A model generated the notes under the pieces. The model did not search any database. It saw nothing but the letters and a program-made list of their open reading frames with translations, and was not told where the DNA came from. Of a stretch of DNA of 24,000 nt, positions 8,162-9,961 are shown in pieces; the stretch's first letter is position 1, and every line of letters starts with the position of its first letter. This stretch comes from Spirochaetia bacterium. Its GTDB lineage: Bacteria; Spirochaetota; Spirochaetia; CADAEX01. The DNA lies in the NCBI GenBank assembly GCA_963662795.1, contig OY759746.1:350331-374330 (forward strand), given 5' to 3'. A program made the translations under genes and the position numbers.

Positions 8162-8650
8162 ATGAATACCAACATATTATCCGAATTCAGAAATTCCATC
8201 AGAAGGATTGAACGTTTTCTGTTTGCAAGTATCAAGGATGACGGGACATGCTGCGGAGTTACTTTCAATGAATGCCATATTCTCATGGAAATAGATAAAA
8301 ACAGAAAAATTGTTATGAAAGATCTTGCCGACACCCTCGGCATGGATAAGAGCATAATAAGCAGGTCAGTTGAGGTAATGGTCAGAGATGACCTTATCAG
8401 CAGGGAAGAACTGACTGATGACAGAAGGAAAAAGAACATAGTACTGACCGGTAACGGAAAAAAGAAAGCGGATTCGATAAATAGTTATATGAACTTAAAA
8501 TATTCTGAACTGTTCAGTTCAATGAATGATGGAGAAGTGGAAAAAGTTATTGAATCAGCAAAAACACTTGCTGACCTGTTTGACAAATGGGTTTTATTAA
8601 ATGAAAAGTCAGACTGCTGCCGGGGTGGAAATAATGGATGCTGTAATTAA
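8162..8650 (+). CDS. MarR-family winged-helix regulator with vicinal cysteine pairs; putative thiophilic metal or metalloid sensor
   Basis: MarR core: TFNECHILMEIDKNRKIVMKDLADTLGMDKSIISRSVEVMVRDDLISREELTDDRRKKNIVLTGNGKK. It has an N-terminal CC (GTCCGV) and a C-terminal CCRGGNNGCC tail (codons at 8615-8644). The 3-prime end overlaps the hgcA start. Confidence 0.8.
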   Translation: MNTNILSEFRNSIRRIERFLFASIKDDGTCCGVTFNECHILMEIDKNRKIVMKDLADTLGMDKSIISRSVEVMVRDDLISREELTDDRRKKNIVLTGNGKKKADSINSYMNLKYSELFSSMNDGEVEKVIESAKTLADLFDKWVLLNEKSDCCRGGNNGCCN

Positions 8651-9638
8651 TAAACTTGAAGGCAGATGGGGAATAAAAGATTACCTTGGGACAATTATGT
8701 GCCGGCTGGGAATAAGAAGGCAGTATTATTCACAGAAACCAGGGCTATATTCCATTGGGAATCCTGATAACAAATCGCCTGTTTTTGTAACTGCCAATTA
8801 CAAATATTCGATAGATGTTCTCCGCAGGGCCGTAAAAAATACAGATTCATGGATCCTTGTTATTGATACAAAAGGAGTAAATGTCTGGTGCGCTGCGGGA
8901 AAAGGGACTTTTGGAACAGCTGAAATAATCAGCAGGGTAAATAAAACAGGACTTAAAGATGCAGTTTACCACAGGACACTTATTCTTCCCCAGCTCGGGG
9001 CTCCCGGAGTAGAGCCGGGAGAGGTAAGAAAAAATACAGGGTTCTCTGTTAAATACGGACCGGTTGAAGCAAATGATATCCCTGAATTCATCAGTAACGG
9101 ATACACTGCGGACAGAAAAATGAGAACCAAACAGTTCAAACTCAGGGAAAGGCTTGCAGTATCTCTTACGCATATGGTCCAGGGTCTGTTGCCAACAGCA
9201 GCGATAGCCCTTTTTTTTGTTCTTAGTGATTTTCTTTTTTCTTTCAAGGGTAATTTCGGTTTTACCGGGTTTCTTTCAATAAATATCCTTGCCTCACTGT
9301 CAGCGTTACTTGGAGGAACAGTTATCGCAGGAGCACTGCTGCCTTTACTTCCCGGAAGGGCTTTTTCCATGAAGGGCTTTTTCATAAGCATTCTTTTTGC
9401 ACTGTTCTTTTTTCAGATAATCAATTCATATTCCTCCCCTCTTTTTATTTTATATACAGGTGGTAAAATGCTGATTCTTTCAGGATGGATTGTGTATCTT
9501 GTCCTCAACCTGACAGGCAGCAGCACTTATACTTCTCTTTCAGGCGTTAAAAAAGAAATGGCGATTTCAATGCCGTTGATTACTGCAGGATCCTTTGCCG
9601 GATTATCAATGATCATTACAGGGGGAATACTCTTATGA
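8634..9638 (+). CDS. hgcA: HgcA, corrinoid protein of the mercury methylation system
   Basis: The diagnostic cap-helix motif NVWCAAGK lies at 8880-8903 (Cys codon 8889-8891), within SPVFVTANYKYSIDVLRRAV...WILVIDTKGVNVWCAAGKGTFGT...LILPQLGAPGV. The C-terminal half is a multi-pass membrane domain with LLPLLPGRAFSMKG. The ATG at 8634 has GGTGG upstream; an alternative ATG is at 8601. Confidence 0.85.
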   Translation: MDAVINKLEGRWGIKDYLGTIMCRLGIRRQYYSQKPGLYSIGNPDNKSPVFVTANYKYSIDVLRRAVKNTDSWILVIDTKGVNVWCAAGKGTFGTAEIISRVNKTGLKDAVYHRTLILPQLGAPGVEPGEVRKNTGFSVKYGPVEANDIPEFISNGYTADRKMRTKQFKLRERLAVSLTHMVQGLLPTAAIALFFVLSDFLFSFKGNFGFTGFLSINILASLSALLGGTVIAGALLPLLPGRAFSMKGFFISILFALFFFQIINSYSSPLFILYTGGKMLILSGWIVYLVLNLTGSSTYTSLSGVKKEMAISMPLITAGSFAGLSMIITGGILL

Positions 9639-9961
9639 CCTATATAAAAAATGTTGCCACACTTGAATACACAAAAGAAAAATGCACAGGATGCGGCATG
9701 TGTGCAACTGTATGCCCTCACGGTGTATTTCATGTAACAGGCGGAAAAGCAGAAATAATTGACAGGGACAAGTGCATGGAGTGCGGCGCATGCATGATAA
9801 ACTGCCCGGAAGGAGCACTAACGGTTAAGCAGGGAGTAGGCTGCGCCTATGCAGTAATAATCTCAAAGCTGAAAAGGCGGGATACAATAAGCTGCGACTG
9901 CGACAGTGATAATCCCCAGGCTCAAAACTGCTGCGGTGGAGGCAGCAGCAGCTGCTGCTGA
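9635..9961 (+). CDS. hgcB: HgcB, 2x[4Fe-4S] ferredoxin partner of HgcA with a Cys-rich C-terminal tail
   Basis: An ATGA overlap with the hgcA stop indicates translational coupling. It has two CX2CX2CX3CP motifs (CTGCGMCATVCP, CMECGACMINCP) and a C-terminus ISCDCDSDNPQAQNCCGGGSSSCC that ends in a vicinal CC, as in known HgcB. Confidence 0.85.
   Translation: MTYIKNVATLEYTKEKCTGCGMCATVCPHGVFHVTGGKAEIIDRDKCMECGACMINCPEGALTVKQGVGCAYAVIISKLKRRDTISCDCDSDNPQAQNCCGGGSSSCC

Follow-up and report, generated by a model that had tools for sequence, protein, structure and literature searches.

The 24,000-nucleotide stretch of contig OY759746.1 from a Spirochaetia bacterium (GTDB lineage CADAEX01) analysed here, hereafter called the window, carries the mercury methylation genes hgcA and hgcB directly behind a gene for a cysteine-tailed MarR-family regulator of transcription. 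This regulator is probably an autorepressor of the marR-hgcA-hgcB operon that is released from DNA by As(III) or Sb(III), in the manner of the MarR_ars regulators, our confidence being higher for the family membership and the repression than for the nature of the ligand. An initial annotation of the window had noticed that the regulator and HgcB both end in a CC-x6-CC motif, and had proposed an undescribed class of sensor sharing one ligand-binding tail with HgcB and responding to the very species that HgcB delivers. Both tails are exactly as it had placed them (8615-8644 and 9929-9958), and the further vicinal pair in the N-terminal GTCCGV motif was confirmed. The interpretation fared differently: the regulator appears to belong to a sensor class described before, the doubled tail is no family feature, and As(III)/Sb(III), not Hg, is the probable effector.

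The MarR_ars proteins are As(III)/Sb(III)-responsive repressors whose genes are located upstream of arsV, arsN and arsP (Yu et al. 2021, bioRxiv 10.1101/2021.08.12.456183). The Achromobacter sp. As-55 protein AdMarR_ars, an autorepressor that binds the arsV promoter as well as its own and comes off in response to As(III) and Sb(III), needs for this response the conserved Cys36, Cys37 and Cys157 of its 163 residues (10.1101/2021.08.12.456183). The window regulator possesses this cysteine triad in the form of C30/C31 plus C153/C154 (plus C160/C161), and appears to fit the MarR_ars kind. The resemblance extends to the MarR fold of about 160 residues, the vicinal pair just before helix a2 (C36/C37 compared to C30/C31), the cysteines near the C-terminus (C157 of 163 compared to C153/154 and C160/161 of 162), the arsenic-gene neighbours, an operator common to the arsenic-island homologues and a predicted autoregulation. 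The differences reside in the target, which is hgcAB or arsM here and arsV, arsN or arsP there, in the C38 and H39 residues added by the hgcAB-linked clade, and in the doubled C-terminal pair of the window's own clade.

With respect to genomic surroundings, a tblastn search of 72,556 plasmids with the window regulator and with P0159, another member of the family, gave the same Firmicutes and Deinococcus MarR genes as best matches, and the nine neighbourhoods inspected all correspond to arsenic islands. Depending on the plasmid, the MarR gene is followed by an ArsP_1 permease gene (PF03773, 184 bits) with ArsR and Pit genes nearby, in Priestia and B. cereus; grouped with GNAT, ArsR, ACR3, ArsC, ArsD and ArsA genes in Clostridium felsineum; associated with ArsN1 and a flavoprotein in Niallia; divergent from ArsN1, with ArsN2 and an oxidoreductase, in Deinococcus; followed by a flavoprotein, with ArsN1 nearby, in Paenibacillus urinalis; followed by two flavoproteins and a major facilitator superfamily transporter in Cytobacillus; and divergent from ArsR-ArsB-ArsC, with ArsM and ArsN1, in P. 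polymyxa. The N-terminal CC (C-S in C. felsineum) is retained in these arsenic-island MarRs, as is a C or CC at the C-terminus, and with a profile built on the hgcAB-linked family they reach 99-157 bits, compared to 30-62 bits for generic MarRs and 64.6 bits for the best MarR of the PDB, which offers no close solved structure. On the Priestia plasmid (L099), a gene annotated as 'RCCLKC-tail radical SAM (S-adenosylmethionine) protein' (1-117), another cysteine-tailed protein in a MarR_ars neighbourhood, stands together with AhpD-like and ATP-grasp genes beside the MarR-ArsP_1 pair.

Among the closer relatives, the regulator gene is consistently placed upstream of either hgcA or arsM. A word-index search retrieved only nine close relatives, all with the DGxCCG[VI]TFNECH motif and most with CC-x6-CC, and an exhaustive HMMER search with the alignment of close relatives gave, at E<1e-10, 860 representatives of clusters. 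Among the 150 best of these, about 90% show the N-terminal CC followed by ..QCH, many with a single CC near the C-terminus. A genome scan yielded the MarR-hgcA-hgcB order in five of five loci from metagenome-assembled genomes (MAGs) of Spirochaetota. Metagenomes scanned for CCG[VI][TS]xx[QE]CH yielded at least 550 relatives, of which the best 80 were kept, and 75 loci (49 clusters at 80% identity) offered the 300 nucleotides or more of downstream sequence necessary for evaluation. The gene directly downstream of the regulator is hgcA in 66 of these loci (46 clusters), with hgcB behind it in all 36 loci that leave room for it, and arsM in nine (3 clusters; NF008823 at 369 and 298 bits, the cut-off being 263), none of the 75 having neither of the two. 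Independent gene calls with Pfam labels reproduced the order MarR, CdhD, Fer4 in five of five look-ups. Besides the acr3 gene of the window and the arsM gene of nine relative loci, a gene for an ArsC-like (pI258-type) arsenate reductase occurs beside hgcAB in nine loci (L005, L036, L042, L058, L065, L081/85/86, and L004 at 7756-8196 on the minus strand, the latter copy scoring 162 bits, just below the cut-off of 174). The organism-labelled loci include Spirochaetota and Acidobacteria MAGs, and the GC content varies widely in the rest. The tight coupling of the regulator to hgcAB, as initially assumed, is supported by this gene order, and the enrichment of cysteine-tailed MarRs is strongly positive beside both hgcAB and ars genes.

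The AlphaFold2 (AF2) model of the regulator (predicted local distance difference test, pLDDT, 91.5) adopts a MarR fold made of helices a1-a6 plus a wing, with MexR, YusO, AdcR and MarR as top Foldseek matches, ZitR also among the best PDB folds and AbfR close too. The C30/C31 pair is located in the a1-a2 loop (residues 27-34), C38 and H39 belong to helix a2, C153 terminates helix a6, and the tail beyond it (residues 154-162) is modelled with low confidence (pLDDT 52-58). Across 342 non-identical relatives, the Cys or His residue is found at C30 in 98%, C31 in 94%, C38 in 98% and H39 in 96% of the sequences, frequencies that are partly selected since the search pattern itself includes these residues; the C153 column is Cys in 80%, and position 110 in helix a5, a Met in the window protein, is Cys in 51%. 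The CC-x6-CC tail occurs in just 10 of the 342 sequences, all from the Spirochaete clade and, among the fetched loci, only in the window and its closest relatives L001, L002 and L007, the usual tail consisting of one C-terminal CC, CxC or C; the last 30 residues are free of Cys in three of the 84 regulators encoded at these loci. The near-invariant part of the family thus appears to be the N-terminal CC-x6-CH motif and not the doubled tail: homologous hgcAB regulators do keep a C-terminal cysteine, in about 80% of cases, and the doubled CC is a property of the Spirochaete clade only. Within the window, CC dipeptides are restricted to the regulator and HgcB among 22 putative genes (6377 residues, 1.36% Cys), and the only other CC-x4-8-CC motif among 143 six-frame open reading frames (ORFs) sits in a spurious ORF of 66 residues. 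Because of this restriction, the cysteine tails are neither due to chance nor compositional, and a compositional bias or a lineage-wide CC habit, which might have accounted for the motif, is ruled out. The view that the vicinal cysteines are soft-metalloid ligands is supported, and those of the regulator very probably act as such.

An operator, AGTTG-N7-CAACT (consensus ATAGTTGTATAATACAACTAT), is shared by the family. In 44 of 76 relative loci, some of them arsM-linked, a copy with no more than one mismatch lies in the 150 nucleotides upstream of the regulator gene, compared to 6 of 1367 random windows from the same loci (0.4%) and 3 of 1620 shuffles. The plasmid arsenic-island MarRs have it about 50 nucleotides upstream, two of them in perfect form and two with one mismatch, the rest showing a TTGCA-N5-TGCAA variant. 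The support for the window copy comes from this conservation across loci and not from window statistics, the motif having no significance within the window alone; extra copies, for instance before acr3, do not exceed chance in the window, so that there is no sign of a regulon. A palindrome proposed at 8119-8160 was not found, the likely operator lying at 8108-8124, and the inverted repeats near the regulator start are limited to one strong hairpin (8076-8102) and a trivial repeat (8157-8168). The promoter-like site abutted by the operator is the best match of the region (10/12), and its layout recurs in L002 and L008 (TTGACA, 17 nucleotides, TATCTT, 6 nucleotides, ATG). The regulator mRNA is probably leaderless, because the ATG at 8162 follows the -10 box by only 6 nucleotides, and the position of the operator against the promoter suggests autorepression through promoter occlusion. 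Immediately upstream of the operator, the hairpin 8076-8102 is terminator-like, its inverted repeat of 13 bp (AAGCTATTCAAAT/ATATGAATAGCTT) running into TTTTT, and may shield the marR-hgcAB promoter against transcription arriving from upstream. An operator-like AGTTT-N7-CAACT with one mismatch is also present at 14715-14731, at the 3' end of an IS4-family transposase gene (13587-14744, plus strand; NF033592, 279 bits), probably by chance.

According to the mechanism proposed here, a dimer of the regulator would bind the AGTTt-N7-CAACT core, abutting its own -35 box, and thereby switch off the marR-hgcA-hgcB transcript, on which acr3 may also be carried and in which hgcA would be translationally coupled to the regulator gene. 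The ligand, a trivalent metalloid for which As(III) or Sb(III) is the most likely candidate and methylarsenite a possible one, would then be bound by the thiolates of the C30/C31 pair of the a1-a2 loop and of the C-terminal C153/C154, probably helped by C38/H39, and the DNA would be released. The second pair, C160/C161, would represent a duplication of the family's C-terminal cysteines within the Spirochaete clade, which may raise the efficiency of capture or be dispensable. The six residues between the two pairs would be fixed mainly by the ribosome-binding site and the start codon of hgcA in the +1 frame, and the likeness to the HgcB tail would mean that proteins handling metal(loid)s have come convergently to flexible vicinal thiols, and not that the two share a module. 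As(III)/Sb(III) is favoured as effector because of the family contexts (arsM, acr3, arsC, arsN, arsP, arsV-like) and of the published biochemistry. The coordinates of the elements involved are collected in Table 1.

Table 1. Features of the marR-hgcA-hgcB-acr3 region, in window coordinates.
Feature	Position	Strand	Description
MarR_ars-type regulator gene	8162-8650	+	162 residues; Pfam, AF2 model, family profile, genomic contexts
hgcA	8634-9638	+	334 residues from ATG 8634; longest ORF from 8601
hgcB	9635-9961	+	108 residues; tail codons 9929-9958 = CCGGGSSSCC
ACR3 arsenite efflux transporter gene	10313-11350	+	TIGR00832, 387 bits against a cut-off of 283
Putative operator	8106-8126	.	TTAGTTTACATTATCAACTGT; core AGTTT-ACATTAT-CAACT at 8108-8124, abuts the -35 box
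Promoter-like site	8126-8155	+	-35 TTGACA 8126-8131, 18-nucleotide spacer, -10 AATCAT 8150-8155; consensus match only
Regulator N-terminal core	8249-8278	+	codons C30-C31-G-V-T-F-N-E-C38-H39; pair in GTCCGV at 8249-8254
Regulator C-terminal tail	8615-8650	+	C153-C154-R-G-G-N-N-G-C160-C161-N-stop; CCRGGNNGCC = codons 8615-8644
hgcA translation-initiation region	8622-8636	+	Shine-Dalgarno GGGGTGGA at 8622-8629, ATG 8634; inside regulator tail codons

The four genes marR, hgcA, hgcB and acr3 follow one another on the same strand. The regulator matches the Pfam models MarR_2 (6.8e-12, 45.8 bits) and MarR (3.3e-09, 36.9 bits) above their cut-offs, all NCBIfam MarR models remain far below theirs and database names are generic, which leaves it with no specific curated family name. 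The ArsR/SmtB model HTH_5 (PF01022) gives no match to the window regulator at E<=0.01, the MarR models winning; weak precomputed PF01022 matches in a few of its relatives may be the reason why genes adjacent to hgcAB in Spirochaetes have been listed as 'ArsR-like' regulators in the earlier literature. HgcA is identified by NCBIfam NF040863 (359 bits against a cut-off of 275), its CdhD domain and its NVWCAAGK motif, the NCBIfam match beginning at residue 18 of the ORF from 8601. HgcB is identified by NF040864 (116 bits against a cut-off of 99) and displays the features of its family, i.e., two CxxCxxCxxxCP motifs, a conserved Cys after the second motif and the C-terminal cysteines. The acr3 gene starts 351 nucleotides past hgcB, an arrangement conserved in L001, and a terminator scan found no terminator-like site between the two genes.

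Several points weigh against the reading of the regulator as a metalloid-released autorepressor of hgcAB. For the hgcAB-linked members of the family, the repressor role and the ligand are predictions, and so is the co-transcription of acr3 with hgcAB, which may or may not take place; in the window, the operator and the promoter are consensus matches only. The probable MarR_ars membership is deduced from arsenic-island homologues that match the published contexts. In addition, the hgcAB-linked clade has a near-invariant C38 and H39, and often Cys110, outside the cysteines named for MarR_ars, so that its ligand or the way it is coordinated may differ. The affinity of thiols for Hg(II) even exceeds that for As(III). 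Finally, the loci were chosen through the regulator, through a pattern containing C38-H39 and through similarity rank, and therefore show the neighbours of this clade only, giving no share of all hgcA loci that possess such a regulator.

The C-terminus of the regulator, KSDCCRGGNNGCCN (also written DCCRGGNNGCCN), owes much of its spacing to the next gene. Starting from ATG 8634, hgcA overlaps the regulator gene by 17 nucleotides, and a three-frame comparison places its Shine-Dalgarno sequence inside the last regulator codons in the window and in L001, L002, L003, L004, L007, L008 and L010, under the forms GGGGTGGA, AGGAGAG, AAGGAGAG, GGGGAGGA, TGGAGG and AGGAG. In the same eight loci the ATG of hgcA lies within the regulator Asn codon plus G (aATGg). 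The spacer G-[GE]-x-N-G of the regulator is thus largely the ribosome-binding site and start codon of hgcA, and, the spacer being explained by dual coding, its likeness to the GGGSSS spacer of HgcB is incidental. A hidden selenocysteine or a Cys-rich N-terminal extension of HgcA in the overlap was ruled out by a TAA stop directly before the 8601 ATG.

From this overlap one might conclude that only the N-terminal CC and the first C-terminal cysteine matter, C160/C161 being a neutral by-product of an extension that holds the Shine-Dalgarno sequence and the ATG of hgcA. This is possible, if rather unlikely: it agrees with the three cysteines sufficient for the published MarR_ars, with the single C-terminal pair of most relatives (and its complete absence in the 3/84 regulators mentioned above) and with the disorder of the tail in the AF2 model. 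However, close Spirochaete relatives keep the Cys after the ATG (CC or CxC): their TGC and TGT codons interchange synonymously, which in the other frame shows up as Ala/Val replacements at positions 3-4 of HgcA, whose residues 2-4 are variable (DAV, IAV, VVV, DAA, NVT, TVS). Such a pattern points to selection on the regulator frame, i.e., on the second CC.

That the regulator senses Hg(II), or whichever species is carried by the HgcB tail, through a shared tail module, hgcAB being induced by its own substrate, appears improbable. The idea draws on the two vicinal pairs that close both proteins in the window and in L001, the HgcB C-terminus being SCDCDSDNPQAQNCCGGGSSSCC (NCCGGGSSSCC), and on the avidity of thiolate sites for Hg(II). 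It also draws on the C-terminal Cys pair of HgcB, at least one cysteine of which is required for methylation and which has been proposed to acquire Hg(II) (PMC7305189). The tail is nevertheless a poor candidate for a shared module, as it is doubled in one clade only and its spacer in the regulator coincides with the hgcA Shine-Dalgarno sequence and ATG. On the HgcB side, a terminal CC occurs in 25 of 27 tails and the doubled CC is again local to the window's clade; L002 combines a doubled regulator tail with an HgcB that has just one CC, the opposite combination is seen in three loci, and the numbers are too small and too mixed to reveal a covariation of tail types across loci. Moreover, the same regulator family is found upstream of arsM and of arsenic-island genes in organisms devoid of hgcAB, and, as Gionfriddo et al. 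report in their introduction, earlier work had found that Hg does not regulate hgcAB transcription. Mercury is disfavoured as the effector on three counts, namely the arsenic contexts, what has been published on the family's biochemistry and this reported lack of Hg regulation.

Doubled vicinal cysteine pairs are rather a recurrent solution in metalloid-handling proteins, ArsM and ArsD included, and no module specific to the regulator and HgcB. The ArsM proteins encoded behind family regulators (L026 670-1533, L033 936-1799, L054 775-1659) carry an N-terminal SCCGPxxSCC and a C-terminal SCCGxNCC motif. Cys-rich N-termini (MSRCCCSSSCCG, MGCCDG, MSEQKCCCG) are found in 33 of 51 HgcA proteins from outside the Spirochaete clade (L013-L086; e.g., L015, L037, L053, L055) and in none of the eight proteins of this clade, which have no N-terminal Cys and whose regulators and HgcB bear the doubled CC tails. 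A CC/CU N-terminal extension of HgcA, which these N-termini match, was reportedly described by Haft in a 2022 preprint.

Many MarR proteins are cysteine-based redox sensors. A thiol-disulfide switch of the OhrR, MexR or MarR-Cys80 type, setting the oxygen-sensitive HgcAB on or off in response to redox conditions or oxidants, would suit the presence of MexR and AbfR among the closest folds and an anaerobic host with a corrinoid/Fe-S enzyme encoded downstream; it is very unlikely, as it leaves the consistent arsenic-gene neighbourhoods unexplained and misfits the published As(III)/Sb(III) response. Equally remote is a structural or sensory Zn(II) or Fe-S site made of C30, C31, C38 and H39, with or without Cys110, the C-terminal cysteines being incidental: the near-invariant Cys3His set of the a1-a2 loop and helix a2 occupies a location presumably comparable to the zinc site of the structural neighbours AdcR and ZitR, but arsenic-island relatives often have Ser38 (Bacillus, Priestia, Niallia) or Gln39 (Deinococcus) while keeping the CC and the C-terminal Cys, and the window protein is devoid of Cys110.

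Coming back to the metalloid-released autorepressor, two other systems invite comparison. ArsR2, an ArsR/SmtB-type protein of Pseudodesulfovibrio mercurii ND132, is an arsenic-responsive regulator of hgcAB, close homologues of which are found only in hgc+ Desulfovibrionaceae (Gionfriddo et al.). It shares with the window regulator a richness in cysteines and an arsenic-responsive control of hgcAB, predicted for the latter, but belongs to the PF01022 family instead of MarR, and its cysteines C47, C49, C86 and C88 comprise no vicinal pair. The closest match to the cysteine layout of the regulator, an N-terminal vicinal pair with a nearby Cys and a C-terminal CC-x5-CC, is ArsD of E. coli R773, with C12-C13, C18, C112-C113 and C119-C120, the CC-x5-CC being implicated in As(III)-responsive repression (PMC4562236); the parallel with the ArsD tail drawn in the initial annotation was correct. 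ArsD is, however, no MarR-family protein but a metallochaperone for ArsA, and the likeness is one of analogy only. Similarly, the HgcB tail resembles that of the regulator in being disordered and ending in vicinal cysteines, but it belongs to a ferredoxin subunit that does not bind DNA, varies widely in length and cysteine number, and has a spacer free of any overlapping gene.

In the literature, a MarR gene upstream of hgcA has been noted in passing for Dethiobacter alkaliphilus AHT1 as well as for Geobacter daltonii FRC-32, searches for MarR with hgcAB gave only such passing mentions, and none linking MarR_ars to hgcAB was found. A member of the present family, P0254, stands upstream of hgcAB in contigs labelled WOOD18, presumably the Woodcroft permafrost MAG set. 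The unnamed regulator reported upstream of hgcAB in 112 genomes by McDaniel et al. probably belongs to this family, because of the occurrence of P0254 in these contigs. Yu et al. mention neither hgc nor arsM (10.1101/2021.08.12.456183), and the strict alternation of hgcAB and arsM, the shared operator, the C38/H39 signature and the dual-coding tail were not found in the searched literature. The sensor class (MarR_ars, 2021) and an ArsR-type arsenic control of hgcAB in one family are thus already known, and what looks new is the target, i.e., a MarR_ars-type regulator at hgcAB.

The control of hgcAB expression and the true role of HgcAB are open questions in mercury biogeochemistry, and a single arsenic-responsive regulator of hgcAB, of the ArsR type, has been tested so far, in one genus. 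The present regulator would add a second, unrelated arsenite-sensing scaffold, located immediately upstream of hgcA and often overlapping it in dozens of loci, with the same clade upstream of arsM, and its presence at hgcAB would constitute independent, convergent evidence for an arsenic link of mercury methylation. More tentatively, it may be imagined that MarR_ars-type As/Sb sensors form a widespread, cross-phylum switch upstream of hgcAB or alternatively arsM, that mercury methylation is part of a metalloid response and that the native substrate of HgcAB is a metalloid; in the Spirochaete clade, whose HgcA has no N-terminal Cys motif, the doubled tails of the regulator and HgcB may have evolved together for catching, or even passing on, one common ligand. 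The regulator itself suggests that methylmercury production in many environments could be modulated by the levels of arsenic or antimony, and a marker-based prediction of metalloid-inducible methylators would become possible. The 19-bp operator, the defined set of cysteines and the 162-residue protein are reagents at hand.

Other genes of the region deserve mention. A SAM-dependent methyltransferase gene, convergent to hgcB, is kept in three Spirochaete-clade loci, namely the window (11902-12690, minus strand), L002 (7816-8535, minus strand) and L008 (6801-7535, minus strand); the window and L002 copies are 32% identical (E 2e-39), and the protein bears a weak likeness, at 57 bits under a cut-off of 180, to CpaM, the corrinoid-protein-associated methyltransferase. 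SAM is reportedly the methyl donor for HgcAB, according to the title of a recent paper, which gives interest to this gene. Beside acr3, a protein of 129 residues with a TrmO/TsaA-like N-terminal domain is encoded at 11445-11834 (minus strand), just under the NCBIfam cut-off, and its L001 copy (9155-9544) is 86% identical. In L098, a long-read assembly (5001-6863), the hgcA gene between MarR and hgcB is called as a fragment of 172 residues only; where the same regulator occurs in a Logan contig, hgcA is intact at 344 residues, and the fragment is probably an assembly frameshift. Upstream of the regulator, a nucleotidyltransferase/HepT-like gene of the toxin-antitoxin type (6331-7186, minus strand) is split in the window into ORFs of 230 and 80 residues, the same gene forming a single ORF of 284 residues in L001 (2846-3700), which suggests a frameshift or a pseudogene in the window.

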